Shown: positions 10,750 through 51,853 of the stretch, piece by piece | Position numbering within the stretch: the stretch's first letter is position 1 | Layout of the letters: each line of letters begins with the position of its first letter | Sequence record: LC680885.1 | Strand: one strand, 5' to 3' | From: Staphylococcus phage S6 | Length of the DNA stretch: 64,000 nucleotides | The notes under the pieces: model-generated | Databases searched by the model: none | Seen by the model: the letters and a program-made list of their open reading frames with translations, nothing else | Told to the model about the DNA's origin: nothing | Program-made: the position numbers and the translations under genes

Positions 10750-10754
10750 TAATA

Positions 10755-11423: not shown

Positions 11424-11437
11424 GTTTTTAATTGGTC

Positions 11438-12355: not shown

Positions 12356-12395
12356 ATCTCTCCTTATATAAAATAATTTGAAGCTAATATTCTTA

Positions 12396-28691: not shown

Positions 28692-28817
28692 TTATTTTTA
28701 TTATTCATTATAATGATTATAAGAAATATGTTTTATTTAAGAAATATGAAAAAATTATTGAACCATAATAACTTATCTTATATAAGTATGAATCTATAAG
28801 GAGATGAGAATTTATTT

Positions 28818-30752
28818 ATGTCTAATCAAGATAATAAATATGAACGTAAAAGAGCTATAACAGGATATTTAGAAAATTTAATCAAATTAATTAAAATAAG
28901 AAAACCTGATATTGATAATGAAAAGTTAATTAATACTTGTAGAGAGTATATTAAAAAACATGTAGATCCAGCTTTAATAGAAATATCTGGACAAAAAATG
29001 AATGTGGATACAACTTTAAGACAAATTATAGATAATAATTTAATTGTAACTGGTTCTGGTTCTATTTATCAGCCTCAATCACAAAGAAAAAATTTAAATG
29101 CAGACATGTTAAAAGACTTTATAGATTCTCGTAAAGTAGCTAAACATAATATGTTTATATATAAAGGTAAAGATGATGTTTTACATGATAAATATATGAA
29201 CGAACAAAAAACAATTAAGATCTTGGCTAACAGTTATTACGGTGCTATGATTCAAAAGAATAGTACATTCTATGATGCTAATTCAGGTCCAGCAACTACA
29301 TATAGTGGTGTTGATATTGTAACTACTTCAGCAATAGCTTTAGAAAGATTTATAGGTGGAAAAATATTCTTTATGAAAATTGATGAAATATATCATTATA
29401 TATTAAGAATAATCAATGAAGAATATAAAGATCATGATATTAAAATAAAAACAATTCCAACTGATATGGAAATTTTAGAAGGTTTAGTTTCTAATGTTGA
29501 AGAATCTTTTAGCGAAGAAGAATATCTTAAATTAGAAGAAGTATTTAGTAAATTAAGTCAAGAAGATAAAAATAAGGTATATTTCAAAAATAACTTATTT
29601 GGTTTAATTGATCATACTGATATATTTGAGAATAAAATTAGTAAAATGACTGGTAGAGAAGATTTCTTAGATCCGAACGAACCACCTGAAGATATGATTC
29701 CATTATTAGATGAATTATTTGAAATATTAAAAGATTGGGTTATATACAACTATCAAGATTATAATAGAATGTATAGAATGAATTACAAGAAACGTAGAAG
29801 TGTTCTCACAATTGACACAGATTCAAATTTCGTTCACTTAGATCCATTATACGAAAAAATGAAATCATTAAAACCTGAAGATTTTCCTTTAGCAGAAAAT
29901 GGTTTAGAAGATAAATTAGAAGAACGTGTAGGTAATATATCTATTATTAACTATCAAATAACTAAATTATTAGAATTATCTTACTATGGATTCTGTAAAG
30001 ATGTAGGATTAGAAGAAGAACATTTAGGTTTAATATCAATGAAAAATGAATTTTTACTTGATAAACAATTAACAACAGATAAAAAGAAAACTTATGCATC
30101 ATCAGTAATTCAACAAGAAGGTAATTTAATTCAACCTCCAGATTTAGATGTTAAAGGTATGGCTATTAGAAAAGTTAACACTAATAAACGTATTAGAGAA
30201 TTATTTACTGAAATATTACAAAAAGATATTTTAGAAAATAAAACTGGTGTAGATCGTATTAAGATAATACGTAAATTTAAAGATATTGAAGAAATGATTA
30301 AGAAATCATTAGATAATGGAGAAATTGAATTCTTAAAACCGTTTAAAGCTAATAATGCTGAAGTGTATAAAGATCCTTATTCTCAAATGGCTTATAGAGC
30401 TGCTTTAGCATGGAATATAATGTTCCCAGAAAAGGAAATAGCACTACCTGCTAAGATATTAGCAGTTAAATTAAATATTAGTACATTTGGAGATATTAAG
30501 AATAAGATAACTGATGAAAATACTTTAAATAGATTTAGAGAAGTATTTAAGAATGAAAGTTTAGTTAAAAATGGTTTAAATGTAATTGCAGTTGAAGGTA
30601 ATACAATTCCTGAAGAGTTTAGACCTTTTATTGACTATGATAGTATGATTGAAGATCATATTAAACCAGGTAAAGATATTATTGAATCTATAGGAGTTAG
30701 AGTATTGGAATCTTCAAATAGCTCATTTGTATCTAATATGATTAAATTCTAA
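28818..30752 (+). CDS. Family B DNA polymerase, C-terminal half (palm motifs B and C, KxY, thumb) encoded as a separate gene
   Basis: Motif B 'KILANSYYGAM' (K-x3-NSxYG). Motif C 'LTIDTDSNFVHL' (DTDS). 'TDKKKTYASSV' (KKRY-like). AAGGAGATG RBS. No exonuclease or motif A in this ORF. Confidence 0.75.
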   Translation: MSNQDNKYERKRAITGYLENLIKLIKIRKPDIDNEKLINTCREYIKKHVDPALIEISGQKMNVDTTLRQIIDNNLIVTGSGSIYQPQSQRKNLNADMLKDFIDSRKVAKHNMFIYKGKDDVLHDKYMNEQKTIKILANSYYGAMIQKNSTFYDANSGPATTYSGVDIVTTSAIALERFIGGKIFFMKIDEIYHYILRIINEEYKDHDIKIKTIPTDMEILEGLVSNVEESFSEEEYLKLEEVFSKLSQEDKNKVYFKNNLFGLIDHTDIFENKISKMTGREDFLDPNEPPEDMIPLLDELFEILKDWVIYNYQDYNRMYRMNYKKRRSVLTIDTDSNFVHLDPLYEKMKSLKPEDFPLAENGLEDKLEERVGNISIINYQITKLLELSYYGFCKDVGLEEEHLGLISMKNEFLLDKQLTTDKKKTYASSVIQQEGNLIQPPDLDVKGMAIRKVNTNKRIRELFTEILQKDILENKTGVDRIKIIRKFKDIEEMIKKSLDNGEIEFLKPFKANNAEVYKDPYSQMAYRAALAWNIMFPEKEIALPAKILAVKLNISTFGDIKNKITDENTLNRFREVFKNESLVKNGLNVIAVEGNTIPEEFRPFIDYDSMIEDHIKPGKDIIESIGVRVLESSNSSFVSNMIKF

Positions 30753-34334: not shown

Positions 34335-34817
34335 ATGATATATTACAAAAATAAAGTAAATGGTGAAATATACGAAGTTAATGATATTCATAGAAAAGAT
34401 GATGCATTTTATTATGTGTTTGGTAATGAATTTAAAAAAGAAAGAATAGGATTATATGAATCAGTGGGTAAAAAAATTGATTTATTTGATAAAGATAAAG
34501 GACATAAAGAATTAAACTTCCAATTAAATTATGACTCATCTAGATTATTTTTAGTTACACATATGAAATATGATAATAATAATCCTTTTGCACCTAAAGC
34601 AGTAGATTTAAAGAATCAAAATTTTGTCGCATCCGATTCTTCAGAAGATCTTTACTATATATTATATAAAAGAATGTGTAATGCAATAGATATACCTTTA
34701 TTAGATTATAATGTATTATTAAAAGAATTTAATTTTGATAATGAAGATATATTTAAAATAATATCAGAAGATTGTAAAGAAGTAAAAGATTTTAAAATTA
34801 GAAATCTTTTTAAATAA
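34335..34817 (+). CDS. paralog-family protein, subfamily C (tail ..KEVKDFKIRNLFK); paralog of 35551-36036
   Basis: 160 aa. The first ~35 aa 'MIYYKNKVNGEIYEVNDIHRKDDAFYYVFGNEFKKE' and the last ~22 aa are nearly identical to the 35551 gene at both DNA and protein level, while the middle has diverged. Confidence 0.6.
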   Translation: MIYYKNKVNGEIYEVNDIHRKDDAFYYVFGNEFKKERIGLYESVGKKIDLFDKDKGHKELNFQLNYDSSRLFLVTHMKYDNNNPFAPKAVDLKNQNFVASDSSEDLYYILYKRMCNAIDIPLLDYNVLLKEFNFDNEDIFKIISEDCKEVKDFKIRNLFK

Positions 34818-34832
34818 AAGGAGAAATTTTAA

Positions 34833-35534
34833 ATGGAAAATATTAAATTGTATAAAAATCTAGAAAACGGTGATAAATTTACTTTATCTAAAGATGAAAT
34901 TAATAATGGTAGATTTCTTTATAAAGTCATGAAACAAATAAAAAGTAATTTTTATCCATATTATAATTATGAAGACCAACCCATTACAACCAATGGAAAC
35001 TCTTATTTAATTAATAAACAACTGAATTTTCATTTTTATACACATTCTGATATTATTATAAATTTTAAAAATTTAATTGGAATAGATGAAGATATAATAA
35101 TTAAGAGTAATGAAAATAAAGAAAGAAATATTTCATCTTCAATTGTTTGTTTCTCTGATTCTAATACAAATAATGATAGAATTTATGAAAATATATTTCA
35201 AATTGTTTTGAACACAAAAAAGGCTAAGAAAATAAATCGTATGCTAGATAAATATAAAAGCGATAAATATGAAATATCTTCTTATACAATGGATAAAAAT
35301 GAAGTAATTTTTAAAGTTAGTTTCAAACAAGATTATTTGTCTGATAAGAGTAATGACGCTTATGATTCTCTAGATGAATTGATATATTATATGTTAAAGG
35401 ACCTTAGAATTAAGATCGACAATTCGTATATGTATTTTATGGATTATCTAAGATGGAATTTGGAATTTATTGCTGAAGAAATTACTGATAAGGAAGAAAT
35501 TAAAAAATACTTAATTAAAGAAAAATTTAAATAA
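34833..35534 (+). CDS. paralog-family protein (tail ..EITDKEEIKKYLIKEKFK)
   Basis: 233 aa. Canonical family tail. GGAG RBS. Confidence 0.6.
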   Translation: MENIKLYKNLENGDKFTLSKDEINNGRFLYKVMKQIKSNFYPYYNYEDQPITTNGNSYLINKQLNFHFYTHSDIIINFKNLIGIDEDIIIKSNENKERNISSSIVCFSDSNTNNDRIYENIFQIVLNTKKAKKINRMLDKYKSDKYEISSYTMDKNEVIFKVSFKQDYLSDKSNDAYDSLDELIYYMLKDLRIKIDNSYMYFMDYLRWNLEFIAEEITDKEEIKKYLIKEKFK

Positions 35535-35550
35535 GGAAGTGTAAATGGAT

Positions 35551-36036
35551 ATGATATATTACAAAAATAAAGTAAATGGTGAAATATATGAAGTTAATAA
35601 TATTCATAGAAAAGATGATGCATTTTATTATGTATTCAATAATGAATTTAAAAAAGAGAATTCGTCTTTTTATAAATCTTATGGTAAAAAGATTGATTTA
35701 TATGATGAAGACGTAGGAATTATAAAATTGGAGTTTTTCTTAATTTATGATTTTATTAATCTTCATTTAACTACACACTTTTCTTGGGATTTTAATAATA
35801 TTCCTTTTATACCTAAAAATATAGAATTAACAAATCAAAATTTTGTCATATCAGACTCTTCAATTGATCTTTATTATTTATTCTATAAAAGAATATGTGA
35901 TGTGATAGATATAAATATGGCACATTATAATATTCCATTAGGAAAATTTAATTTTGATAATGGAGATATATTTGAAATAATATCAGAAGATTGCAAAGAA
36001 GTAAAAGATCTTAAAGTTAGAAATCATTTTAGATAA
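35551..36036 (+). CDS. paralog-family protein, subfamily C (tail ..KEVKDLKVRNHFR)
   Basis: ATG at 35551 with AAGGAAG 10 nt upstream (track start 35545 is too close to the RBS). Paralog of 34335-34817. Confidence 0.6.
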   Translation: MIYYKNKVNGEIYEVNNIHRKDDAFYYVFNNEFKKENSSFYKSYGKKIDLYDEDVGIIKLEFFLIYDFINLHLTTHFSWDFNNIPFIPKNIELTNQNFVISDSSIDLYYLFYKRICDVIDINMAHYNIPLGKFNFDNGDIFEIISEDCKEVKDLKVRNHFR

Positions 36037-36041
36037 GGAGA

Positions 36042-36227
36042 TTGATAAATATGAGAAAAGAAATTAGAAAAAATGAAAGTAAACAATTGACTTTACAAGA
36101 AAAATGGGAAATTGATGCAGAATTATACAGAGAGAAAAATAAAGACAAGAAAAAAATAAAAGGGCCAATTATAGGAAAGAAAGTTTCTAAAGAAGAAATG
36201 GAAAGAATCTTAAAAGGAGAAGAATAA
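36042..36227 (+). CDS. small basic protein
   Basis: 61 aa, Lys-rich. AAGGAG RBS. Stop overlaps the next start. Confidence 0.4.
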   Translation: MINMRKEIRKNESKQLTLQEKWEIDAELYREKNKDKKKIKGPIIGKKVSKEEMERILKGEE

Positions 36228-36228
36228 A

Positions 36229-36882
36229 ATGTTTAATCACAATATCTTACTATATAAACCTATTAGCATTGATTATAATGATTTTATTGAGTTAAACAAA
36301 GAAAAATATAAAAATGATAGAGAATATATTAAAATGATAAATGTATTTAACTTAATGGAACTGTTAAAAATAGACTCTTTTAAAGATAAAACTTTCTTTG
36401 AAACTGAATGTAAATTAAAATTAAGAGGTTATGATGAATATAAAAATATAAAAGTGGTTTACAATCAATCATTAGACAGTGATCCAATATTCTCTAATTT
36501 AAAAAACTTTAATGCAGAATTAGATATTATAAGTAAAGAAAGAGATAATACTTATATGACTGAAGAATTATTATATGAATACAATATGATGAAAATGAGC
36601 ACATGTATAAATGATAAAGCTAACACTATTACAATTAAAATAAAAAATTTCATTAATTCAAATAAAGAAAATTTTAATAACGATTTTGAATTCCTTATTA
36701 AAGAATTTGAAAATAATTTATTAAAGAATTTAACAGACCTCCATAAATATGAAGACTTACAACTTCTAATTAATAGTGAATATCACAGTTTAAAAGATAT
36801 TAGTGTATATAATGAAAAAATATTTAGACCTGCTACTGATAAAGAGTTTAAGAATTATTTAGTTAAAAAAGGATTTAGATGA
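36229..36882 (+). CDS. paralog-family protein (tail ..TDKEFKNYLVKKGFR)
   Basis: 217 aa. Family tail. AAGGAG RBS. Confidence 0.55.
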   Translation: MFNHNILLYKPISIDYNDFIELNKEKYKNDREYIKMINVFNLMELLKIDSFKDKTFFETECKLKLRGYDEYKNIKVVYNQSLDSDPIFSNLKNFNAELDIISKERDNTYMTEELLYEYNMMKMSTCINDKANTITIKIKNFINSNKENFNNDFEFLIKEFENNLLKNLTDLHKYEDLQLLINSEYHSLKDISVYNEKIFRPATDKEFKNYLVKKGFR

Positions 36883-36891
36883 AAATATGTA

Positions 36892-36917
36892 TTAAATATA
36901 TATTATAAAAATGAGAT
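36892..36917 (+). promoter_or_regulatory. Conserved promoter-like motif copy 5 ('ttaaatatatattataaaaatgagat') followed by hairpin 36913-36943
   Basis: Exact consensus. A 13-bp hairpin 'gagataatgaatt..aattcattatctc' overlaps its 3' end. Confidence 0.45.
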
Positions 36918-36975
36918 AATGAATTAATATAATTCATTATCTCTATATTAATTTAATTAGGAGAGTGAAAAAGAT

Positions 36976-37584
36976 ATGGATTTAAAAGAGAATAAATTTT
37001 ATTATAATAAAGATATTAATGAGCTTTTTATAATTGGTAAGGATGAAAGTGATATTAACGATAAGATAAATAAATTCTATTATAAAAAATTATTAGAAAA
37101 AAATTTAGATTATCATGGTTTAATTAATAATCTTTATTATAATAGAAATATAAATTTTGATTTAATGGATGATGACGATATATATTTTAGTAATATGTAT
37201 AATGGAATTAGAGAATATATTAAGGTGAGTTATGTAGAATTTTCATGTACAAATTTTGAAGATAATGAAGTAATATTACAGTTAGATACTTTTATTGATA
37301 AAAGCAATGATAAAAATCTTTTAGAAGTTCATAAAGATTCGCATGGTGTTACCATAACAATGGTAAAAGGTTTTTATGAAAAAGATCTTATAAATTATAA
37401 TGAATACAAAAATATTTTAGACAAATTATCTGATCTGTTTGACACAATGCTTAAAGAAGAAAATGATGGAAATATTAAAATCTTTATAAATGATATTGAT
37501 ATATTTGAACCTTATGCATATTTTAGAGAGTTAGAAGACGAAAGAGGAATTAAAAATATTTTGGTTAAGAAAAATTTTATATAA
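36976..37584 (+). CDS. paralog-family protein (tail ..ELEDERGIKNILVKKNFI)
   Basis: 202 aa. AGGAGAG RBS. Confidence 0.55.
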   Translation: MDLKENKFYYNKDINELFIIGKDESDINDKINKFYYKKLLEKNLDYHGLINNLYYNRNINFDLMDDDDIYFSNMYNGIREYIKVSYVEFSCTNFEDNEVILQLDTFIDKSNDKNLLEVHKDSHGVTITMVKGFYEKDLINYNEYKNILDKLSDLFDTMLKEENDGNIKIFINDIDIFEPYAYFRELEDERGIKNILVKKNFI

Positions 37585-37598
37585 AGGAGATAGATATA

Positions 37599-38219
37599 AT
37601 GGATGTAAATGAATATATAAATAATCATGATTTTTATAGAGTTGGGAATGACGGTCAAGTATTTGTATTTAATAAAGATATATCAAAAGATGAATTAAAT
37701 TCTAAAATATTTACTAAATTATTTTCATGCGAAAATATAGGAATTATACTGTCTGAATGTGGTCATTATATAATAGATGGAAATAATATATTCTTAAGAA
37801 ATAATGATAAAATATTATTAGTCGAAAATATGACTATTGATATAAGTTTATTTAAAGATGATCTAATTGAATTAAATTTTATATTAAATATTGAATCTGA
37901 TCTTTATTCAAAAATTGGTCCTTTTGAAAAAGATAATCATGATCCTTTTTATTATTATAATACTATTATTCAAATAGAAAATAAAGATAACTTTCAACAT
38001 GAATTAATTTCTCATATAACAAATCATTTTAATAAAATGAGTGATGTTGATTTAATGCTTTTAACTACTAAAAATGAAATTAGATTTAATAAAGATTATA
38101 GTATTAATAAAAAATGTATTGATTTTAAATGTAATTTTAATGAAATTTATAAAATATTTAATAAATTAGAAGATGAAAAAGAAATTAAGAAATATATAGT
38201 AAGAGAAAATTTTAAATAA
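37599..38219 (+). CDS. paralog-family protein (tail ..LEDEKEIKKYIVRENFK)
   Basis: 206 aa. AAGGAG RBS. Confidence 0.55.
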   Translation: MDVNEYINNHDFYRVGNDGQVFVFNKDISKDELNSKIFTKLFSCENIGIILSECGHYIIDGNNIFLRNNDKILLVENMTIDISLFKDDLIELNFILNIESDLYSKIGPFEKDNHDPFYYYNTIIQIENKDNFQHELISHITNHFNKMSDVDLMLLTTKNEIRFNKDYSINKKCIDFKCNFNEIYKIFNKLEDEKEIKKYIVRENFK

Positions 38220-38232
38220 GGATAGAATAAAT

Positions 38233-38796
38233 ATGAATTTAGATAATATTGTAATATTAAAAAAGAAAAATGATGGTAAATTTGACAATAACAAATTTAT
38301 AGAATTTAATCATAATAATATTAATAATGATGAAATATTAAGTCTTTCTTTAATTACTCTATATACGAGCGTGTATGCATTTTATATAAAAAGTGATGTA
38401 AAACCTGACAATTTTGTTAGTTATTTAGCTAATTTTTATTTAGAAATAGATGGGCATTTAAAAGGACCTTTAAATATAACACATGATGAAAATAATAGAA
38501 TACTTATAATTTATAAAGGAAGACTACCACAAGATATTTTTGAGATTAGAGAATTTAACGTAAATACTAAATTATATGCATACTTAATTAAAGGTGGTAA
38601 TTACAATACGGTAGAAGATGATCTAATCAAATCAATAATCAATGGTTCAGAGTATATAATAAATAATGAAAGAATTAAGCCAAAAATTATTATTAATGGA
38701 GCATATAAGGATATTACAAATGTATTAAATTATTTTGAAAAACTTACTGATGAAAAAGAAATTAAAAAATATCTAATTAAAAAAAATTTTAAGTAG
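38233..38796 (+). CDS. paralog-family protein (tail ..LTDEKEIKKYLIKKNFK)
   Basis: 187 aa. AAGGA RBS. Confidence 0.55.
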   Translation: MNLDNIVILKKKNDGKFDNNKFIEFNHNNINNDEILSLSLITLYTSVYAFYIKSDVKPDNFVSYLANFYLEIDGHLKGPLNITHDENNRILIIYKGRLPQDIFEIREFNVNTKLYAYLIKGGNYNTVEDDLIKSIINGSEYIINNERIKPKIIINGAYKDITNVLNYFEKLTDEKEIKKYLIKKNFK

Positions 38797-38813
38797 AATA
38801 AGGAGGATTAAAT

Positions 38814-39437
38814 TTGGATAAGTCATTATATGTATCGGATATATTCGATGAGAAAGTTATAGGAAGAAAGGATCTTAATAAAGATGAACTTTTTGATTTG
38901 TCATTTAATACAATTTTAAATAATTCTGCTGACACTAGATTTAATAAAGAAGGAATTAGGTTAATGTTATCATTTTCAAAAGGATTAATTTTAAAATTTG
39001 ATTATGCAGACAAATATTTTTATGTGAAAGATTTTATATTTTTAATAGAAAAAGTTGATGGTAACTATGAATTTAATTTTACATTAAGTATTCCAGAATT
39101 TGCAGACAGTGAAATTGAAATTGAATTAGGAATTTTTGAATCGGATAAAGGTCATAGAGAATTTTATTTTAATGATTTTTCTTATTATAAAGAAGGAAAA
39201 ACTTTATTAGAAAGAGCTAAAGAATATTTAATATACGATATTTTTAATAATTATGGTGTTATTTTTAGTATTTTTTCATTAAAAGACAAAAATAGAATTT
39301 TAACAGACGATAATTTTATCATAGATAATAATGATATAGATGAATTTTATAGTCTAAAAAATATAGATAACGTATTTAGAGAAGTAACAAACGAAAAAGA
39401 AATTAAAGAATACTTAGTTCAGAAAGGATTTAGATAA
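38814..39437 (+). CDS. paralog-family protein (tail ..VTNEKEIKEYLVQKGFR)
   Basis: 207 aa. TTG start after AAGGAGG. Its final codons (AAAGGA) serve as the RBS of the next gene. Confidence 0.5.
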   Translation: MDKSLYVSDIFDEKVIGRKDLNKDELFDLSFNTILNNSADTRFNKEGIRLMLSFSKGLILKFDYADKYFYVKDFIFLIEKVDGNYEFNFTLSIPEFADSEIEIELGIFESDKGHREFYFNDFSYYKEGKTLLERAKEYLIYDIFNNYGVIFSIFSLKDKNRILTDDNFIIDNNDIDEFYSLKNIDNVFREVTNEKEIKEYLVQKGFR

Positions 39438-39438
39438 A

Positions 39439-40050
39439 ATGAAAATAGACTTAGAATCTTATGAATACTATTACCATGATGAAGAAAAAATATTAGTTCC
39501 AGTATCATTAGATATGAAGAAAGAAAATGCAAATGAGTTAATGACGTTTGAATATTATAAGAAAGTTTTTAAAAGTTTTAATCATAATATATTTCATAAA
39601 AGAATTCATGATGATAATATACTATTTAGTACTCGATTAAATAAAGTGATTAACAAAAGTACTGGTATATCAATACCTACTTATGATTTATATATACATT
39701 TTGAAATAGATAACTCATTAAATATTATTTCCTTAGAATTAAGTTTTTCAATGGATACAAATCACTTTGATTTATTTAGAACATTCTATAAAGATAAAAT
39801 AGAAGTTATAAATTTTTCAAAGACAGATTTTTTAAAATATAATCAAAATGTAGATAATTTAGAAGATAAAATGGCATGTCTATTAGCTAAATTATTCTTT
39901 GATATGCACAATGATGAAAATGAAGATATTGAAATATATGTAGACAATTTTTACCATGAATCACTAGACATAGCTAAGCCATATAAATATTTTAGATTGA
40001 TGGGAGAAAAAGAAATAAAAAATCTAGCAACTAAAAAAACTTTTAAATAA
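39439..40050 (+). CDS. paralog-family protein (tail ..GEKEIKNLATKKTFK)
   Basis: 203 aa. ATG lies 10 nt after the AAAGGA formed by the K-G codons of the upstream gene. Confidence 0.55.
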   Translation: MKIDLESYEYYYHDEEKILVPVSLDMKKENANELMTFEYYKKVFKSFNHNIFHKRIHDDNILFSTRLNKVINKSTGISIPTYDLYIHFEIDNSLNIISLELSFSMDTNHFDLFRTFYKDKIEVINFSKTDFLKYNQNVDNLEDKMACLLAKLFFDMHNDENEDIEIYVDNFYHESLDIAKPYKYFRLMGEKEIKNLATKKTFK

Positions 40051-40107
40051 TTTAATTAACTTTCTTTTATATTAATAAATACAATGAAAGAGAGTTGAAT
40101 ATAATAA

Positions 40108-40887
40108 ATGTCTGAAACTAATGAAATTGATTTAATATCACAAATCAATGATATGATGGATGAATATAAGATGTTAGTAAAATTTAAAGATAAAATGGAA
40201 AATAAAGAAATTCAATTAGAAAATCGTATACAGGATTTAACTAAGAATTTGAAATATCCTAAACATACATTCGTATCTAATATGGAAGCTAACATTATTA
40301 GTGTAGAAAAAGAAATTAAAGACACTATTATGCAAATGAAAAATGTTAAAAAAGATATTATTGACTTAACTATGAAAGCTCAGAAAATGGCTGAAGATGA
40401 TGAATCTGAAGATAATTATAAAACTCTTGCTAAAAATGTACTTAATGAGCTTAATAATATGTCTAATAAAGATATTTTAAACAGTATGATGGAACCTGAA
40501 GAAGTAAATGATGAAGATACTGATTTTAGTGAAGAATTAGATGCAAAATTGTCACAATTAGATGAAGAAGAGAAATCTATTAATAAAGAAGTAGATCAAA
40601 AAGAAGAATTGAGTCAAGAAATTAATGAACTAGATCAACAAGATTTATCTTCTATATTAAAAGTCTATAAAGGTACATTACAATTCTTTGTTGTAGGAGA
40701 TTCTCCTGAAGAATATGAATTAGTAGTTGCTGATATGGATATGAATATTATTGAAGAAGATGAAATGGAAGATGAATACCCAGAATTATTTACTATGACT
40801 AGAGATCTTATCTTTGAAGATGTTGAAGGTAATGATGAAATAGTTAAAGATGAATTTGGAAATATTTATCAAAAAGCAGAATTTTAA
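40108..40887 (+). CDS. highly acidic coiled-coil protein
   Basis: 259 aa. Runs such as 'EEDEMEDEYPELF', 'DEDTDFSEELD'. GAGAG RBS. Confidence 0.55.
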   Translation: MSETNEIDLISQINDMMDEYKMLVKFKDKMENKEIQLENRIQDLTKNLKYPKHTFVSNMEANIISVEKEIKDTIMQMKNVKKDIIDLTMKAQKMAEDDESEDNYKTLAKNVLNELNNMSNKDILNSMMEPEEVNDEDTDFSEELDAKLSQLDEEEKSINKEVDQKEELSQEINELDQQDLSSILKVYKGTLQFFVVGDSPEEYELVVADMDMNIIEEDEMEDEYPELFTMTRDLIFEDVEGNDEIVKDEFGNIYQKAEF

Positions 40888-40895
40888 ATTATTTT

Positions 40896-40929
40896 ACCCC
40901 ATAATATATTAATACAATATATTATGGGT
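40896..40929 (+). terminator. Hairpin terminator ('accccataatatat..atatattatgggt')
   Basis: Near-perfect 14-bp stem followed by an AT-rich T tract. Confidence 0.5.
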
Positions 40930-40956
40930 ATTTATTATATATGAAGGCTATGTGTT

Positions 40957-41322
40957 ATGGGATTTGAGTTAACGATATATGGAATAAATAAAAGTAAGCA
41001 AAGAGATTTACAATGGTATATTAATCATCATAGATATACTAAAGAGAAGAATCATTTATTTGAATTGGAATTATATAAACCACATGAACTTTTTGATGTA
41101 TTAAAATATAAAGTAATTAATTATAAAAATGAAGATGGTTTTGATATTCAAGTAATAGATGAAAATACTTTAAAAGAGTTAATGGAAAATGAATTAAGAG
41201 AAAATAATTTTGAATATGGCTTAACTCAATATTATGAACTTATGACTGAAATATCCAGAAATAAATATTTTATAAATAATGATAAATTTGATTTTTACCT
41301 AATTTTAGATACATCATTTTAA
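40957..41322 (+). CDS. hypothetical protein
   Basis: 121 aa. Confidence 0.45.
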   Translation: MGFELTIYGINKSKQRDLQWYINHHRYTKEKNHLFELELYKPHELFDVLKYKVINYKNEDGFDIQVIDENTLKELMENELRENNFEYGLTQYYELMTEISRNKYFINNDKFDFYLILDTSF

Positions 41323-41343
41323 TAATAGGAGAGTGAAATAGAT

Positions 41344-41469
41344 ATGTTAAAAAGATTATACAATTTATTAACTAAGAAAAAATTTGAAAGAAGATTATAC
41401 GACTTTAGATTTAATTATCAAGATCATGAACATTTAAATCAAGTTCATAGAGATTCAAATAATATTTAA
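41344..41469 (+). CDS. small ORF (41 aa) not in the supplied track
   Basis: ATG at 41344 with AGGAGAGTG 8 nt upstream. Encodes 'MLKRLYNLLTKKKFERRLYDFRFNYQDHEHLNQVHRDSNNI'. Verified in-frame stop at 41467-41469. Confidence 0.4.
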   Translation: MLKRLYNLLTKKKFERRLYDFRFNYQDHEHLNQVHRDSNNI

Positions 41470-41488
41470 TATGAAAGGATGATTATTA

Positions 41489-41890
41489 ATGCTATCAGAA
41501 TACAGATTAAATTCAAGTAAAGAAGACATTAAACAGCTATTAAGAGATTATGGTTTTAAAAAAGATTCTTATACTAAAGCTTTATTATATAGAAAACGTG
41601 TAACTGACCCAAATGATATTTTATTTATAGTGGCCGAAGTAGTTATTGAAACTAATTCAGATCTAGTTAAATTAAATTACTATGATAGTAAACATAATAG
41701 ATTTAATCCTTCTAATGAATCACCAGAAGTTCAAAAAGGTTTAAGTATATTAGAAGATATGAAAGAAAAAGAATTATTAATTGAACCAGAGTTAACTCAA
41801 AATGAAGAAGAAAAAGAAGTTCTTGATAGACTTAAAGAACAACGTGAAGAAATGGAAAATGGTCAAGTATCACCCAATTCTGAAAATTAG
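41489..41890 (+). CDS. hypothetical protein
   Basis: 133 aa. AAAGGATG RBS. Confidence 0.5.
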   Translation: MLSEYRLNSSKEDIKQLLRDYGFKKDSYTKALLYRKRVTDPNDILFIVAEVVIETNSDLVKLNYYDSKHNRFNPSNESPEVQKGLSILEDMKEKELLIEPELTQNEEEKEVLDRLKEQREEMENGQVSPNSEN

Positions 41891-41891
41891 A

Positions 41892-41917
41892 ATAAATATA
41901 TATTATAAAAATGTTAT
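41892..41917 (+). promoter_or_regulatory. Conserved promoter-like motif copy 6 ('ataaatatatattataaaaatgttat') + hairpin 'tcccaatacta..tagtattggga'
   Basis: Begins 2 nt after the stop of the 41489 gene. Hairpin at about 41917-41945. AAAGGAG RBS of the 41971 gene follows. Confidence 0.45.
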
Positions 41918-41970
41918 CCCAATACTATTAAATTAGTATTGGGATTATTATAATAAAAGGAGTTAAGTAA

Positions 41971-42747
41971 ATGGAGAAAATTAAAAAATACTACATTAGT
42001 AAATCGAAAGATGAATTTATGGAATTAACTTTCAATGAAAATGAAACACTCTATTTTGACTTTAAGTGGAAAGTTTTAAGTGAGCTATTCACTACAATGC
42101 AAATAAATTATAATAAGAGATTTCTTATATCTCATGAAGAACATGATGACAATGGTTTAGTTGGTCTTAGAATAAATTTCAATGCTTTTCCCACAGTTAA
42201 ATACAAATATAAGGGTAAGAAAAATAAAATGGAACTTCTTATATACGCTATAATACGCTTTAGTCTAAATGAAGAAGACGATAATTATATTAAGTTTAAA
42301 GCTGTTCCTTTATATAATAATAGTGAAATAGGGAAAAGATTATTTAGTAAAAGATCTGGTATATTTGATGATAATGGTGAACTAAATTTACCGCATGACT
42401 TTAATGAAGAAGTTATGATTCGTTTTTTAAAATATTTTAAAAGTCATATACAAAAAGGTAAAAGACCTTTAGAACTCAAGGATGATTTACACAAGATGTT
42501 TACTACTACAAATAAATTAATTTTTGAATTACTAGATCAGATACAAGATCATTCAGATATTGAATTTCTTATTGCACCCGATTGGGATTTTAGTGGTAAA
42601 GAAATGGAAAAAGAAAAAGGTTTTAGTTTTGAAAAAGAATATGATAAGTATATCAGTTTAAATGATTTCGATGTTGATGCATATTTTAGAGAAATAACTG
42701 ATGAGAAAGAGATTAAAAAATTTAAAGTTAAGAAAGGATTTTCCTAA
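41971..42747 (+). CDS. paralog-family protein (tail ..EITDEKEIKKFKVKKGFS)
   Basis: 258 aa. Also has the internal 'QIQDHSDIEFLIAPDW' block shared with the 44346 member ('QIRDHFDIEFFVSDG'). Confidence 0.6.
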   Translation: MEKIKKYYISKSKDEFMELTFNENETLYFDFKWKVLSELFTTMQINYNKRFLISHEEHDDNGLVGLRINFNAFPTVKYKYKGKKNKMELLIYAIIRFSLNEEDDNYIKFKAVPLYNNSEIGKRLFSKRSGIFDDNGELNLPHDFNEEVMIRFLKYFKSHIQKGKRPLELKDDLHKMFTTTNKLIFELLDQIQDHSDIEFLIAPDWDFSGKEMEKEKGFSFEKEYDKYISLNDFDVDAYFREITDEKEIKKFKVKKGFS

Positions 42748-42748
42748 T

Positions 42749-43567
42749 ATGAAAAATAATACAAAATATTTTATAGATAAAAAAAGAGATGAATTAATTG
42801 AAATTGATAAAGAATATCTTAATCGATATGAGTATATTGCACACGTATTAACTGTCATTGATATGAATAAGCTTTTATATATTGAAGATCATGCTAGATC
42901 CTTTATAAATGGTATTAATATTGAAGAAAATGATGTGGGAAATGGATTGACTTTTAATAATATAGAAATTCATAATAATATCCATTTCAAAAATATAAAT
43001 AGTAAAAATAATGCGTATAAAAATTTTAATACCGATTTTTATATAAACTTCTTTATTGATAGAATGGATAAAGTTAAAACTCAGAATTTTAAGTTAAAAT
43101 TTAATTTTTATAATTCAATATATAAAGAATATTTTAATAAAATTACCAATAATTTATTAAATGAAGATAATTTAGTCAATGAAGGAGTAAATAAAGAAAT
43201 AAGATCTCTTATGAATTTTGAATTATTTAAAAAAGAGTTATATAATACTAAATACAATAATAGTGAATATTTAAATCTTTTTGAAAATTCATCATATATG
43301 AAGGACAATGTTATTGGATTTATAAATAAATTTGAAGGATTATTTTCTAGTGTAATATACCAAAATAACCTTAGTGTATTAATGACTCTTTATGAAATAA
43401 AATACATGTATGAAGATGACATAGATTTTTATATTAATTTTTATAATGAAAATTATGGTTTAGTTAATATATTAGAATTAATCGAAAGTGATGAAAATGA
43501 TTTATTTAAAGAAATTAAAACAGAAAAAGAAATGAAAGCGTTTAAAGTTAGAAAAGGATTCAAATAA
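42749..43567 (+). CDS. paralog-family protein (tail ..EIKTEKEMKAFKVRKGFK)
   Basis: ATG at 42749 lies 2 nt after the upstream stop. The RBS AAAGGA is formed by the K-G-F codons of the upstream gene (track start 42701 is an internal overlap). Confidence 0.55.
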   Translation: MKNNTKYFIDKKRDELIEIDKEYLNRYEYIAHVLTVIDMNKLLYIEDHARSFINGINIEENDVGNGLTFNNIEIHNNIHFKNINSKNNAYKNFNTDFYINFFIDRMDKVKTQNFKLKFNFYNSIYKEYFNKITNNLLNEDNLVNEGVNKEIRSLMNFELFKKELYNTKYNNSEYLNLFENSSYMKDNVIGFINKFEGLFSSVIYQNNLSVLMTLYEIKYMYEDDIDFYINFYNENYGLVNILELIESDENDLFKEIKTEKEMKAFKVRKGFK

Positions 43568-43588
43568 TATAAAGAAAGGATTTTTGTA

Positions 43589-44329
43589 ATGGAATATAAT
43601 AATTACTATAGATATAAATTAGATGGAAAAATACTTCACTTTGATATGGATAGAACTGATTTACGTAGAGATAAATTGGCTGAAATATTTACTAAAGTTA
43701 AGATGGAATATATTTATAAAGATAAAAAAATGATTAAAAAAGCAAGAAACTTTATTTACCGATCTAATCTTTCTTTAGAGTATTCTCATTTTAAAGATAA
43801 AGTATTTGTAATCAAACAAATTTCTAAAATGCTAAGTAAAAACAATGTAAGGGATTTATTAATTTACGATACGGATCTTAGTTTAGAATTTAATTCTATT
43901 TTAGACGGTGGTATATTTAAAAAAGATTTTCCAGAAGGATCCTTTTATGAAAAAATAGAAAGTAATATGAATAGAAAATATTTAATTTTAAGTGATAATA
44001 TAAGACACACTAGTGAAAGTTTTGTTGATTTATATGATAAAGATTATATTTTAAATTTTGAAGAAGTAGAATTGCTAGTCAAAGAATTTAATAAAACTCT
44101 TTTAAATTATCTTATGGATTTAATGAGTTATGGAAATCTAGAATTAAAAGTTAGAAAATCGGAGTTAGCATATTTTATGACAGGAATATATACAAAAATG
44201 GAAGAAAACGAAGATAAGTTATTCCCTATATTTGATTATAAATTTTTACTTAATGAATCTGGATTATTTGAAGAGATTACAGATGAGAAAGTTATTAAAG
44301 AATATTTAGTGAAAAATAATTTTAAATAA
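43589..44329 (+). CDS. paralog-family protein (tail ..EEITDEKVIKEYLVKNNFK)
   Basis: 246 aa. Last ~80 nt are nearly identical at DNA level to the ends of the next two genes. Confidence 0.6.
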   Translation: MEYNNYYRYKLDGKILHFDMDRTDLRRDKLAEIFTKVKMEYIYKDKKMIKKARNFIYRSNLSLEYSHFKDKVFVIKQISKMLSKNNVRDLLIYDTDLSLEFNSILDGGIFKKDFPEGSFYEKIESNMNRKYLILSDNIRHTSESFVDLYDKDYILNFEEVELLVKEFNKTLLNYLMDLMSYGNLELKVRKSELAYFMTGIYTKMEENEDKLFPIFDYKFLLNESGLFEEITDEKVIKEYLVKNNFK

Positions 44330-44345
44330 AAAGGAGATCAATGTA

Positions 44346-45128
44346 ATGAGTATAAATAAAAGTCATAAAAAATATTTTTTGAGTAAAATGACAGATGATT
44401 TATTTGAAGTTACTAACTTATACAGATATAATATAAATGAAGATTATTTATATCTACCTCAATTACTTTCTAATTTACAAGTAAAAAGTAATGAAGAAAT
44501 AAATATACTTTCTGAAGAGATTGTTGGTAAAGATGATAATGGAGAGAATTTATGGTCAGGAACTATATCAGCTGGATATATTTTTCCAGTTATCAAATAT
44601 AATGTTAATAATAAAAAGACAACGAATATACTTATTATTGATTTTGATATTATTTTCAACGAATCAATAGAAAATGAAAACTATTTAAAAGTTAGAATTG
44701 AAAATCCATACTCTTCAGGTATAAATTCAATAATTTTTAATAGCGTTATTGGCAATATATTAGATGAATCCAATTCTTTAAAAGTACCTTTTAGATTTCA
44801 TATAAATAGCATGGAAGATTTAATATCAGATTTTAATAATGGTACAGAAAATGATTTTAGAAATAATAAAGATTTATACCAAATATTAGTTGAAGTAAAT
44901 AGTTCTATATTGGAAATTTTATCACAAATTAGAGATCATTTTGATATAGAATTCTTTGTATCAGATGGTTGTTTCTCGCACATACCAGAGAATGATAAAA
45001 GAGATAATGATGATATAGATGATAAATACTATAATTTATTTGACGAGTATAAAATGTCTGGAGTATTTGAAGAGATTACAGATGAAAAGATTATTAAAAA
45101 ATATTTAGTGAAAAATAATTTTAAATAA
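44346..45128 (+). CDS. paralog-family protein (tail ..EEITDEKIIKKYLVKNNFK)
   Basis: 260 aa. N-terminal 'KKYFLSKMTDDLFEV' is shared with the 45144 gene ('KKYFLCKINDELFEV'). Confidence 0.6.
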   Translation: MSINKSHKKYFLSKMTDDLFEVTNLYRYNINEDYLYLPQLLSNLQVKSNEEINILSEEIVGKDDNGENLWSGTISAGYIFPVIKYNVNNKKTTNILIIDFDIIFNESIENENYLKVRIENPYSSGINSIIFNSVIGNILDESNSLKVPFRFHINSMEDLISDFNNGTENDFRNNKDLYQILVEVNSSILEILSQIRDHFDIEFFVSDGCFSHIPENDKRDNDDIDDKYYNLFDEYKMSGVFEEITDEKIIKKYLVKNNFK

Positions 45129-45143
45129 AAGGAGATTAATATA

Positions 45144-45941
45144 ATGGGTGTAATTAAAAGTAATAAAAAATACTTCCTATGTAAAATAAATGATGAATTA
45201 TTTGAAGTTGATAAGAACAATAGAGATTCATTTTTATATGACTATTTACCTTTAATAATAGCTGAAAAAATAATTAATTCAACTGAAAAAGATTCATATG
45301 AAACTAGTGCATTGGATGTTTATTATAAAAAAGAAGATAACATAATTGAAGGGAATTTAAAATTTTTAGCAAGATGTTTACTTCCCGTCCTGTATAATTT
45401 CAATAATAAAAATTCATTTAAAACAGTTATGACTATCGCAGATTTTAAATTTAAAAGAGATGCTAATAAATCTACTTTTAGTATAGATAAAAATAGTGTT
45501 AATGATAAAATACTATTTCAAATGAGACCTTTAGGAAATGAAATTGATGATATTTTATTTAATAGTATTATAAGTGACCTTTTAAATGAAAATGACGAAA
45601 TAGAAATGAAACAAATGTTATTAATTGGTAATTTTGAAAAATTGTTAAGTGAAATTGATAATCAAAATATAAAACATCATGATGATTTTAAAATTTTAAT
45701 CAAAGATATATTCAATATTTATCTTAATTTATTAAACTCATTAAGTCATCATTTTAATATTGAATTTTTCTTTTCTGAATCTTCTTTTCTAGACATGTTA
45801 AATATTTATGATTATGATATTATTAATAATAAAGATAGTTATAAAATAAATATTTTTGAAGATGATTTAGATGGAATATTTGAAGAGATTACAGATGAAA
45901 AATTTGTTAGAGAATATTTAGTGAAAAATAATTTCAAATAA
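45144..45941 (+). CDS. paralog-family protein (tail ..EEITDEKFVREYLVKNNFK)
   Basis: 265 aa. AAGGAG RBS. Confidence 0.6.
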   Translation: MGVIKSNKKYFLCKINDELFEVDKNNRDSFLYDYLPLIIAEKIINSTEKDSYETSALDVYYKKEDNIIEGNLKFLARCLLPVLYNFNNKNSFKTVMTIADFKFKRDANKSTFSIDKNSVNDKILFQMRPLGNEIDDILFNSIISDLLNENDEIEMKQMLLIGNFEKLLSEIDNQNIKHHDDFKILIKDIFNIYLNLLNSLSHHFNIEFFFSESSFLDMLNIYDYDIINNKDSYKINIFEDDLDGIFEEITDEKFVREYLVKNNFK

Positions 45942-49235: not shown

Positions 49236-49278
49236 TGCCAAACATTCTTTAAATAGAGTGTTTGGCATTTTATATTTT
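49236..49278 (+). terminator. Rho-independent terminator ('tgccaaaca..tgtttggca' + T-run)
   Basis: 9-bp stem, 14-nt loop, followed by 'ttttatatttt'. Confidence 0.5.
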
Positions 49279-49349
49279 AATTTTTTATGAAATTTAAGTA
49301 ACGATTAAATTATCAAAGTAGCAATTGAATTGAGGAGTGTTCAAAGATA

Positions 49350-51071
49350 ATGGGTAGATTTATTAAATCAACATATTTAAATAAAAAAGAGACACATTCA
49401 GGAAAAGAAAAAGTAGTAATGGTAGTTAAAGAAGAAGACGGTAATAAAAAACATATGGAAATAACTGATCCAATGATGCATTATTATGTAACTAAAGATG
49501 AACATTGGTTACCACCTAATAAAATTGTAGGTTCTATTGAAAAAGATAAAGTAAGAACTGTTACTTGTAAGCATAAAGATATTATCAAATCAGTAGTTAA
49601 AGAAGCTGGTAATGCTCAAGATAAAGCAGAATATGATAGAATTATGAAATCAGGTAATTGGCAAGAATATAGAAAATTAAAAGATTTTCATTTATTAAAT
49701 AATGCTCATGGATCTGATATTAATATAGAAGATTATAATATTAATGAGTATATTAAAAAGAATTTAGATAGTAAAGTCGGTATAGATATATGTCTATTCG
49801 ATATTGAGGTTGATGGTTCTCAAGTAACAGGCTTCCCAGATCCTGAAAAGGCTGAAGCAGAGATAAATATTATAACTGTAGTGGATTGGAGTAAGAAAAA
49901 AGTATTAACATTCGCTCTTAAATATGACACTGATACTTATAGAGAAACTATGGAAGATCAGGATAAGTTAATTAAAGACTTAAATGAAATCTATAATAAT
50001 GAAAATAGTGAAATTGGTAAAGATTTAGGTTTAGAATTTGAAATATATGAATTAGATACAGAAATGCAAGTAATTAAATCTTTCTTATACTATATTAATG
50101 AAATTAGTAAACCTGATATATGTACAGCATGGAATCTAGATTATGACTTCCCTGCAATATTTGAACGTATTAGAGCTAATGGAGAAGATCCTGCAGATTA
50201 TTTCTGTTCTAAAGAATTTGAAGATAAGAAAGCATATTATAAATTAGATAAAAACGCTACAGATATGGCTAATAGATCTTCTACATTTGAGACTAATTCT
50301 TATACTAACTGGATTGACCAATTAGCTTTATATGCAAATATTAATAAACCTAATGGTGCTTTGGAATCAGTTAAGTTAAATGATATTGGAGAAAAAGAAG
50401 CGAGAGTTACTAAAGATGTTTATGAAGGTTCTATTTCTGATTTACATTTTAGAGATTATTACACATTTATACTTTATAATATTAAAGATACTGTATTAGC
50501 TGCATTAATTGAACATAACACTAATATGTTTGATTTATTATTCTCTATTGTAGATATGACTAGAACAAGACCTAGTAAAGCACTTAAGAAAACTATTTGT
50601 TTAAGAAATCGTAGTTCAGTATTCTTTGAAAATCAAGGATACGTATTAAGTAATAACCACTCAAAATTATTATCAGATCCGAATGCAGATAAAATTCGTG
50701 GTGGATTTGTAGCAGATATGATGTTAATTGAACGTAATGGTGATACATTAGTTAAAGGTAGAGATATTAGATCTAATAGATTATTTAGTAATGTTTGTGA
50801 CTTTGACTTGAGTGCTCTATATCCATCTATTATTAGAGCATATAATATAACACCTGAAGGACATGTGGGTAAAATGAATATTCTTGATAAAGATAGAATA
50901 ACAGTGCCTAAGTATGAGGAAGATAAAGATAACTATGATTTTAATACTGAATTCGTAAGTAAGTTTAACAGTCAAGATAGTGTTGCTTTTGCTCAAGAAT
51001 TTCATGGTTTACCTCCTCTTATTAAAGCATCTGATGACATTATTAAAGAATTAGAGGAGGAAATTGGTTAA
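49350..51071 (+). CDS. Family B DNA polymerase, N-terminal half (3'-5' exonuclease domain + palm motif A) encoded as a separate gene
   Basis: Exo I 'ICLFDIEVDG'. Exo II 'AWNLDYDFPAIF'. Exo III 'YTFILYNIKDTV'. Motif A 'DFDLSALYPSII'. The ORF ends about 75 aa after motif A, and no motif B or C follows it. The next ORF starts at an overlapping ATGA. Confidence 0.75.
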   Translation: MGRFIKSTYLNKKETHSGKEKVVMVVKEEDGNKKHMEITDPMMHYYVTKDEHWLPPNKIVGSIEKDKVRTVTCKHKDIIKSVVKEAGNAQDKAEYDRIMKSGNWQEYRKLKDFHLLNNAHGSDINIEDYNINEYIKKNLDSKVGIDICLFDIEVDGSQVTGFPDPEKAEAEINIITVVDWSKKKVLTFALKYDTDTYRETMEDQDKLIKDLNEIYNNENSEIGKDLGLEFEIYELDTEMQVIKSFLYYINEISKPDICTAWNLDYDFPAIFERIRANGEDPADYFCSKEFEDKKAYYKLDKNATDMANRSSTFETNSYTNWIDQLALYANINKPNGALESVKLNDIGEKEARVTKDVYEGSISDLHFRDYYTFILYNIKDTVLAALIEHNTNMFDLLFSIVDMTRTRPSKALKKTICLRNRSSVFFENQGYVLSNNHSKLLSDPNADKIRGGFVADMMLIERNGDTLVKGRDIRSNRLFSNVCDFDLSALYPSIIRAYNITPEGHVGKMNILDKDRITVPKYEEDKDNYDFNTEFVSKFNSQDSVAFAQEFHGLPPLIKASDDIIKELEEEIG

Positions 51072-51853
51072 TGTCTATTATTATTGAAGAATCAAAAATA
51101 GTGAATAAATTAGTAATGACTTTTGAAGAAATATCTAAGCTATTCAATAATATTGTTGATGGAAGTAAGTATATTAGTTTAAATAAAAATATTATAACAA
51201 ATCATTCTAAGTCAGATGATAATCCTAATTCAGTTGAAGTGGAAATTATAGAAGATAATCCAATTTACGATTATCTTCTACCTATTGAAAATTGTGTTTT
51301 TAGTGTAGAAGACTTTATTGAAGTAAGAAAAAATAAGGGAGATAAAATTGTTAAAGTTGAATTTTTCAATGAAATCGATAATAGTGGTATTAAAATAACT
51401 AGAGAATCTGATTTAGAAACTACTATTAATGGTGATGAGTTTGATGAAGATTTATTAGATGAAGAATTAAATTATTCATTGGATGCTATTAATTATTTTA
51501 GTTCTTTTGAACCAAGTCTAAATTTCAAATTAGATAATGATAGTTTATTGGAAATTAAGGAAAGAAAACCTTCTGAGTTCTTTAAGTTTATATTCACTGA
51601 AGATGATGTTATTGTTAAAGATCCTTATTATATTTATAATGAAGAAGACTACCTTATTGATTTTAGAACTTCTAAAAAGTATTTATTAGGATTAAAATAT
51701 AAAAAGACTAAAGGAGAAACAGTTTGTCCATTAGTTAAAATAGATGTATACGCCCCAGAAACAACTGTATATAGTGAATTGATTATGATAAAATTTTCAA
51801 TTTACCAAGACAAATTTGTTGCAAAATTGAAGAATTTAGTTTATAATATATAA
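51071..51853 (+). CDS. hypothetical protein
   Basis: 260 aa. Start overlaps the stop of the polymerase N-half (GGAGGAAATTGGTTAATG). No polymerase motifs. Confidence 0.5.
   Translation: MSIIIEESKIVNKLVMTFEEISKLFNNIVDGSKYISLNKNIITNHSKSDDNPNSVEVEIIEDNPIYDYLLPIENCVFSVEDFIEVRKNKGDKIVKVEFFNEIDNSGIKITRESDLETTINGDEFDEDLLDEELNYSLDAINYFSSFEPSLNFKLDNDSLLEIKERKPSEFFKFIFTEDDVIVKDPYYIYNEEDYLIDFRTSKKYLLGLKYKKTKGETVCPLVKIDVYAPETTVYSELIMIKFSIYQDKFVAKLKNLVYNI

Follow-up and report, generated by a model that had tools for sequence, protein, structure and literature searches.

The 64,000-nucleotide (nt) stretch of Staphylococcus phage S6 DNA under study (record LC680885.1; the whole stretch is called the window here) very probably encodes a two-subunit family B replicative DNA polymerase (PolB) of the phiKZ/AR9 jumbo-phage type, with an active site that is shared between the subunits and with the subunits associating non-covalently. 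The subunits are encoded by two genes on the same strand, for the N-half (573 amino acids, aa) and the C-half (644 aa) of the enzyme. The C-half gene is located 18,597 nt upstream of the N-half gene, and 21 open reading frames (ORFs) of at least 100 aa lie between them. The first-pass annotation of this DNA had described the N-half ORF, with an exonuclease and motif A, exactly as it is found here, and had rightly paired it with a far-off partner starting with MSNQDNKYERKRAITGY, the C-half.

In the proposed model, the N-half would provide the N-terminal domain, the proofreading exonuclease and strand 1 of the palm with motif A (D486, Y491), and the C-half would provide the fingers (R105, K109 and motif B), the remaining palm with motif C (D333/D335), the KKxY motif and the thumb. 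The two genes would be transcribed and translated independently. The proteins would then associate non-covalently, with the motif A strand next to the motif C hairpin of the partner to complete the two-metal site, and with the C-terminal tail of the N-half and the N-terminal head of the C-half docking the two chains. The split would be older than the divergence of AR9-like and phiKZ-like phages, and it has apparently been undone at least twice by end-to-end gene fusion.

Division of the catalytic motifs between the two chains

The motifs of a T4/RB69-like PolB are divided between the two proteins (Table 1). The exonuclease motifs (DxE, Nx2-3[FY]D and Yx3D) are all located in the N-half, and the A-B-C order of the polymerase motifs, followed by KKRY, is obtained only when the N-half is placed before the C-half. 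T4/RB69-like enzymes are single polypeptides, whereas two ORFs are found here. Conservation was assessed with an alignment and profile of 48 homologues for the N-half and 19 for the C-half.

The family profile of the N-half aligns with residues 96-436 of RB69 gp43 as a single continuous stretch (E value 8.5e-36). By alignment, D486 is equivalent to the catalytic D411 of RB69, and Y491 to the steric-gate residue Y416. The protein belongs to phrog_3011 (matched over positions 28-562 of 576). The string DFDLSALYPSIIRAYNITPEG, which contains motif A, corresponds to residues 484-506 and is followed by 67 residues, with 87 residues after D486; the earlier figure of about 75 residues past motif A is a fair one. 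Residue 489 in motif A is Ala here (DLSALYPS), as compared to Ser in most of the aligned homologues and in RB69 (S414).

The C-half is a member of the divergent PolB family PF20286 (divDNApol; E value 4.9e-53), with a match to PF00136 as well, and of phrog_2927 (E value 1.3e-96). Its family profile matches residues 449-565 of Vent, from the start of the fingers, and residues 704-814 of RB69. The two halves cover the T4-type phrog_262 (856 positions) in a complementary manner, the N-half at positions 11-444 and the best of two C-half stretches at positions 566-846. Residues R105, K109, Q130, K134, N138, Y141 and G142 are invariant in the 19 homologues. In this family all the catalytic residues are invariant except for the motif A Asp, and there is no conserved acidic column before the fingers.

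Both proteins have the features of phiKZ/AR9-type subunits. The C-half matches the divDNApol profile, and its motif C is preceded by a long insert of helices, the feature by which the 'divergent PolB' clade is recognized (Iyer et al. 2021). The N-half has the size (about 550-640 aa), the exonuclease and the end about 75-90 residues past motif A that are typical of the other subunit.

Each half was modelled as a single chain with AlphaFold2 (AF2), with a mean predicted local distance difference test (pLDDT) score of 87 for the N-half and 82 for the C-half. A Foldseek search gives RB69 gp43 as the best match of the N-half model (E value 5e-19) and T4/RB69 gp43 as the best matches of the C-half model (E value 2.5e-7). 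In the N-half alone, residues 1-440 are predicted with very high confidence, and the motif A segment (residues 481-506) has pLDDT below 50. In the C-half alone, the motif C hairpin has pLDDT of 60-69 inside an otherwise confident palm. Such a loss of confidence is the behavior expected of elements that need a partner chain to fold; in these models it is suggestive of such a need, and not proof of it.

From the alignments, the break is placed inside the palm (around RB69 residue 436), past strand 1 and the motif A helix and ahead of the β-hairpin and the first finger helix. With a break in the palm between motif A and the fingers, the two-metal site must therefore be assembled from two chains.

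The ends of the two proteins at the break are maintained in evolution. The natural C-terminus of the N-half is conserved in the 48 homologues and the N-terminus of the C-half in the 19, and 148 of the 150 best representatives concur. The tail of the N-half has helices at residues 531-540, 544-552 and 557-572 (pLDDT 73-91), with the motif F.D.Y.S.D.I.FG....LP conserved across the 48 homologues, and the helices in the head of the C-half are found in all 19 homologues. The tail has no similarity to PolB or inteins (Pfam, and a profile search against all PDB sequences), and the head resembles no solved structure (profile search against all PDB sequences). We infer that these two conserved modules, for which canonical PolBs offer no equivalent, make up the interface at which the chains dock.

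An origin of the tail and head by overlapping duplication was considered and rejected as unsupported, as the PDB profile searches gave no PolB match and hhalign gave a probability of 0.9% for the tail against the C-half family. The likeness behind this idea was noted by eye, between the tail, with its pattern F.D.Y.S.D.I.FG..Y..LP, and the RB69/T4 segment after motif A, and between 'GKMNI' in the N-half and 'GQKMNV' in the C-half.

Relatives of the two subunits and the position of motif A in phiKZ-type phages

The N-half protein is 100% identical to that of phage S6 and 99.8% identical to that of vB_SauM-UFV_DC4 (DC4), and the C-half is 100% identical to that of DC4. Identity to the proteins of the Staphylococcus jumbo phages (S6, DC4, PALS_2 and MarsHill, and also Madawaska and Machias) is 85-100%. 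More distant relatives are found in Bacillus phages AR9, PBS1 and BpSp, Yersinia phage phiR1-37 and Listeria phage LPJP1. The DNA of S6 and AR9 has been reported to contain uracil in place of thymine.

The split into two polymerase subunits is already known from publications on this phage group. The DC4 paper lists UFVDC4_00020 as 'DNA-polymerase catalytic subunit' (644 aa) and UFVDC4_00046 as 'DNA polymerase' (573 aa), and the records of MarsHill, Madawaska and Machias label the genes 'catalytic subunit' and 'exonuclease subunit'. The term 'split subunit DNA polymerase' has been cited for phiKZ relatives since 2012. The break point in the palm, the motif A of phiKZ-type phages and the fused relatives go beyond the published work that was examined, with the reservation that the palm break may already be described for phiKZ-type phages. 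The literature searched contained no biochemical or structural work on this polymerase.

The orthologues of the two halves in AR9 and PBS1 are gp132 and gp152. The identity to the AR9 proteins is 38% and 35%, respectively, and the break point is the same. Synteny is also shared with AR9 (SbcC ... N-half ... portal), and the C-half gene is again located upstream of the N-half gene, about 15 kb away. The downstream neighbor of the N-half gene is different, being the DnaQ-like g131 in AR9 and an unrelated 260-aa gene in the window. In AR9, an early promoter is annotated for each of the genes g132 and g152, which are separate transcription units. Both belong to the 'continuously expressed' class, and the 5' end of the g152 transcript has been mapped by primer extension (Lavysh et al. 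2017).

The family is a large one. A search with a profile hidden Markov model of the C-half finds 8,368 representatives at E<=1e-3, of which 1,145 reach E<=1e-30, and the supergroup family amounts to over a thousand clusters at 50% identity. Nearly all of the best 150 C-half representatives are 630-715 aa long or are shorter fragments, and two are twice as long. The first of the long proteins (P0205, 1224 aa) contains a complete N-half profile at residues 22-562 and a complete C-half profile at residues 582-1224; in the second (P0277, 1276 aa) the two profiles are at residues 18-607 and 622-1274. In both proteins the whole N-half, including the tail, is linked to the whole C-half, including the head, by 14-20 residues. 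The cluster of P0205 holds an independent 1231-aa JGI member on two contigs, and P0277 was verified to be one ORF, carried on a phage-like contig of 68 kb.

An unbootstrapped neighbor-joining tree was built for the C-half domain, with phiKZ-type proteins as the root. It does not group the two fusions as sisters, and each of them branches from within split-type proteins. The tree suggests, tentatively, an ancestral split and re-fusion as a secondary event on at least two occasions. In the split-type relative nearest to P0205, the N-half, a 92-aa ORF and the C-half follow one another on one strand, an intermediate arrangement, and no N-half is found within 6 kb for the closest relative of P0277. 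The 92-aa ORF between the halves (L017 5726-6004; L018 2284-2562) resembles neither of the halves, nor the fused proteins. The natural fusions are evidence of the Rosetta-stone type that the two proteins function together as a single enzyme, with free ends that can come close to each other.

The complementary motifs, the fused relatives and the co-expression in AR9 all point to the assembly of both proteins into one active enzyme. Several points weigh against this reading. The physical association of the halves is deduced from sequence and from models of single chains, the linker of 14-20 residues in the fused forms sets only loose limits on the geometry, and the docking role is assigned to a tail and a head that do not resemble anything known. 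Moreover, the two catalytic aspartates of phiKZ-like phages have both been assigned to the polymerase subunit in published analyses. Kazlauskas & Venclovas (2011) reported that the exonuclease alone is a separate protein in these phages, and assigned D229 and D398 of phage EL to the polymerase chain as the active-site aspartates.

These analyses are in effect the basis for an alternative explanation, in which the N-half is a stand-alone proofreading exonuclease with a vestigial motif A, and the C-half is self-sufficient with another acidic residue. The description of the enzyme as merely lacking a fused exonuclease (Iyer et al. 2021) also agrees with it. The assignment of D229 is difficult to reconcile with the sequences, however. 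In an EL-like polymerase subunit with numbering identical to EL, motif C (SDTDA) has D398 as its second Asp, and D229 comes 69 residues after K160 of motif B, against the universal A-B-C order. Nine polymerase subunits were aligned (EL-like, phiKZ gp050, PhiPA3 gp047, SPN3US gp18, Ea35-70, pEt-SU, Fusobacterium JD-Fnp1, AR9 and the window), and the D229 column reads D/D/D/N/D/D/K/E/N. On the other hand, the finger R/K, the Q/K/N/G of motif B, motif C and KxY are invariant in this alignment, and no column ahead of the fingers is acidic throughout.

Motif A of the N-half, in contrast, does not have the appearance of a vestige. It is invariant in the 48 homologues and clearly recognizable in phiKZ gp82 (638 aa; IADLDIVSTYPN) and in gp235 of Vibrio phage sm033 (571 aa; VADIDITSGYPN), 76-82 residues before the C-termini. 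The catalytic Asp is followed by 87 residues in the window, 74 in AR9, 76 in phiKZ and 82 in sm033, and the sm033-type N-half protein is present in 301 phage records. A stand-alone exonuclease next to a self-sufficient C-half is accordingly improbable.

The phiKZ-type proteins (phiKZ gp82 and gp050, SPN3US gp18, EL gp021; PF20286) share the two-gene architecture and the long helical insert before motif C with the window. They are very divergent, with about 20% identity, and by the present alignments they are broken at the same point. A break in the palm and a two-chain catalytic center are thus likely to be general to the phiKZ/AR9 supergroup, including the Chimalliviridae, with the 'exonuclease' subunit contributing the motif A Asp and the steric-gate Tyr. 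If this is the case, the published domain model for phiKZ-like phages, which puts the two aspartates together in the polymerase chain (EL D229), would be wrong, and the tail and head at the break would be a dedicated heterodimerization device that can be re-fused without loss. Judging from the alignments, the place given to motif A in the literature on phiKZ should probably be revised.

A shared active site would have consequences for the annotation and the biochemistry of these enzymes. Both ORFs would be subunits of one essential enzyme, and neither would be simply an 'exonuclease' or a complete 'DNA polymerase'. Expression of a jumbo-phage polymerase from the C-half gene alone should fail if the active site is made of two chains. 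The requirement for two chains would also matter for studies of uracil-DNA synthesis in S6/AR9-type phages and of replication in the phage nucleus of phiKZ. As natural forms of the enzyme in a single chain, the rare fused relatives could ease biochemical and structural work.

Two further observations concern the phiKZ-type polymerase subunits. Fusobacterium phage JD-Fnp1 was considered as an unsplit relative and rejected, its 738-aa 'DNA polymerase' being a C-half-type protein only. A gene of about 136-140 aa is found directly upstream on the same strand in 6 of the 6 phiKZ-type polymerase-subunit loci examined (L006 837-1259, L011 827-1237, L012 891-1301, L013 892-1311, L014 760-1176 and L015 753-1172). 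It is probably the small SH3-fold protein that Iyer et al. (2021) proposed as a possible polymerase subunit. Upstream of the C-half gene in the window, the nearest same-strand ORF is 213 aa long (27698-28339), and a small gene on the opposite strand, divergent from the C-half gene, is located between them.

Separate genes and possible routes of joining

The separate Shine-Dalgarno sequences and flanks of the two genes, their reversed order, the conserved termini and the helical extensions support a split at the level of the genes, with neither protein nor RNA splicing, as the first-pass annotation had proposed. It had also proposed searches for inteins and for introns as checks, and both were carried out.

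A trans-splicing split intein could in principle join the halves into a single polypeptide. The PolB genes of Nanoarchaeum equitans are explicitly non-adjacent and their products are joined by intein-mediated trans-splicing; the halves in the window are likewise encoded far apart, and gyrA in this phage group has an intein. However, intein, Hint and LAGLIDADG families of Pfam give no match in either half at E<=0.1, consistent with the earlier statement that the intein block signatures are absent. A motif scan of the N-half tail (residues 507-573) found no Cys and no TxxH, as would be present in a Hint N-lobe. The first 200 residues of the C-half contain no HN-[C/S/T] of a Hint C-lobe, the only HN being that of H110-N111-M112 in finger helix 1. 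Moreover, the tail and head are predicted by AF2 to be largely helical, in comparison to the all-β Hint fold, and they stay intact and contiguous in the fused relatives, and are therefore not excised elements. A split intein at this position has next to no probability.

Joining at the RNA level, by trans-splicing of group I/II intron halves or by ribosomal bypassing, would also yield a full-length product, and introns are common in the N-half gene of relatives. The Rfam intron models find nothing in the window at the gathering threshold. They likewise find nothing, also at E<=1, in Madawaska, Machias and PALS_2, despite the annotated introns in these phages, and a negative result has been reported for the DC4 genome by its authors. 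The Rfam check is uninformative for these AT-rich phages because it is blind to the annotated introns in relatives, and the lack of matches is weak evidence. The arrangement of the genes argues against this route. The C-half gene is upstream of the N-half gene, and therefore read-through, hopping and cis-splicing are excluded. The N-half stop codon overlaps the next start codon, and therefore there is no room for a 5' intron half. In addition, the C-half gene has a Shine-Dalgarno sequence and start codon of its own, conserved family-wide, and the g152 transcript of AR9 has its own mapped 5' end. We consider RNA-level joining to be extremely unlikely. An artefact or decay, in the form of a frameshift, a sequencing error or a pseudogenized polymerase, has a negligible probability, as the same ORF ends are found in nine independently sequenced Staphylococcus phages, AR9, PBS1, phiR1-37, phiKZ and hundreds of metagenomic homologues, and the catalytic residues are all invariant.

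The overlap at the end of the N-half gene is different in detail from what had been described. The earlier claim of an overlap with an unrelated 260-aa gene holds, and the ATGA sequence given for it does not. The junction reads GGT TAA TG, such that the overlap is TAATG (51069-51073) with one shared base. The Shine-Dalgarno sequence of the 260-aa gene, GAGGAGGAA (51054-51062), is located inside the final codons of the N-half.

The window copies are free of the introns and homing endonucleases found within the copies of Madawaska, Machias, PALS_2 and other phages, and are otherwise essentially as in these relatives. The N-half ORF is uninterrupted and collinear with the spliced homologues. In relatives, the N-half gene is interrupted at two recurrent sites, around aa 158-161 (just past Exo I) and at aa 261-262 (in Exo II), the latter in Madawaska and Machias. 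The C-terminus is free of insertions in the N-half genes of Madawaska, Machias and PALS_2, and neither of the two sites is interrupted in the window copy. The Madawaska insert (L001 3787-3936) has 150 nt and no ORF, and those of Machias (L002 2975-3757 and 4050-5134) and PALS_2 (L003 2986-4009) carry HNH or other homing endonucleases. The C-half homologues of MarsHill (MW248466 105061-107178) and Madawaska (MW349129 104735-106852) match in two pieces over 2118 nt, as compared to 1932 nt. They presumably carry an insertion of about 186 nt, an intron, which is missing in the window copy.

The likeness to the 43A/43B polymerases of Aeromonas phages that the first-pass annotation had drawn is a loose analogy. 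As in the window, gp43A and gp43B of phages 44RR and 25 represent an intein-free split at the gene level, with the exonuclease and motif A on the N-piece and motifs B and C on the C-piece, and the two pieces of phage 25 have been reported to co-purify and to be active. The break site, spacing and gene order are different, however. In 44RR, 43A (498 aa) and 43B (391 aa) are adjacent, in canonical order and with a 49-nt spacer, whereas the window genes are dispersed and reversed. The 43A protein of 44RR extends through motif A, the hairpin and the first finger helix (FLQRKSEKK) to the fingertip, where it stops 101 residues past the catalytic Asp, and 43B begins 46 residues before motif B. In comparison, R105 and K109 of finger helix 1 are on the C-half in the window, where the break is about 60 canonical residues earlier, and 44RR is without the lineage-specific tail and head. 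The fingertip break, the finger helix 1 on the N-piece and the adjacent cistrons of the T4-like split are thus all absent from the window.

The split PolBs of archaea (Methanothermobacter thermautotrophicus, N. equitans) are also encoded by two genes and divided in the catalytic domain. These archaeal enzymes are broken near motif C, well downstream of the break in the window. The split in Methanobacteriales PolB is thought to stem from faulty intein excision.

Gene surroundings and coordinates

The positions of the two genes, their motifs and their flanking elements are collected in Table 1. A terminator is annotated in the Madawaska and Machias records at the position equivalent to that of the hairpin upstream of the N-half gene. 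The 260-aa gene has no match in Pfam or PHROG and is kept at the same position in Madawaska, Machias and PALS_2. It was considered as the counterpart of the DnaQ-like g131 of AR9, and this was rejected, as there is no similarity between them and no Pfam or PHROG match. An early promoter motif of the AR9 type, AAATATATATTAT, upstream of both halves was also rejected, being a loose AT-rich likeness that is meaningless at 22-25% G+C.

Table 1. Features of the two polymerase genes and their flanks (positions in the window)
Feature	Position	Strand	Remarks
N-half subunit gene, 573 aa	49350..51071	+	N-terminal domain, 3'-5' exonuclease, first palm segment with motif A, lineage-specific tail
Terminator-like hairpin GCCAAACA...TGTTTGGC with T-run	49237..49279	+	between the preceding gene and the N-half gene; read from sequence
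N-half Shine-Dalgarno sequence GAGGAG	49332..49337	+	12 nt before ATG; read from sequence
Exonuclease motif I (Exo I) FDIEVD, aa 150-155	49797..49814	+	D151, I152, E153, V154 and D155 invariant in 48 homologues
Exo II NLDYD, aa 262-266	50133..50147	+	N262 and D266 invariant; recurrent intron/homing-endonuclease insertion site in relatives
Exo III YNIKD, aa 376-380	50475..50489	+	Y376 and D380 invariant
Motif A DFDLSALYPS, aa 484-493	50799..50828	+	D484, D486, Y491 and P492 invariant; aligned to RB69 404-436
N-half C-terminal stretch (tail), aa 507-573	50868..51068	+	unstructured segment, then three helices; proposed docking module
Downstream 260-aa gene	51071..51853	+	function unassigned; start overlaps N-half stop (TAATG)
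C-half subunit gene, 644 aa	28818..30752	+	two-helix head, β-hairpin, fingers, palm remainder with long helical insert, thumb
C-half Shine-Dalgarno sequence GGAGA	28800..28804	+	read from sequence
C-half head, aa 1-48	28818..28961	+	lineage-specific, helices 5-28 and 34-48; proposed partner of the N-half tail
Finger helices with R105/K109 (binding deoxynucleoside triphosphate) and motif B KILANSYYG, aa 134-142	29127..29243	+	invariant residues
Long helical insert between motifs B and C, aa 189-323	29382..29786	+	helices in AF2 model, pLDDT about 90
Motif C DTDS, aa 333-336	29814..29825	+	D333-T-D335-S invariant; second half of the metal-binding site
KKxY primer-binding motif KKTY, aa 423-426	30084..30095	+	K423, K424 and Y426 invariant; aligned to the RB69 KKRY region

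The G+C content of the window is 19-36%, and about 20-27% around both polymerase genes. The GC and AT skews flip sign near 12 kb (window 1-12400 compared to 12600-64000), where minus-strand genes give way to plus-strand genes; one of the ORFs in the block on the minus strand is 1992 aa long (4627-10605). Between the polymerase halves, the region 34335-45941 on the plus strand contains several small families of tandem paralogues, with function unassigned. Examples are the genes at 34335/35545 (67% identity), 36976/39439, 37599/38814 and 41971/44346/45144, the last of which shares a short segment with the gene at 43589.

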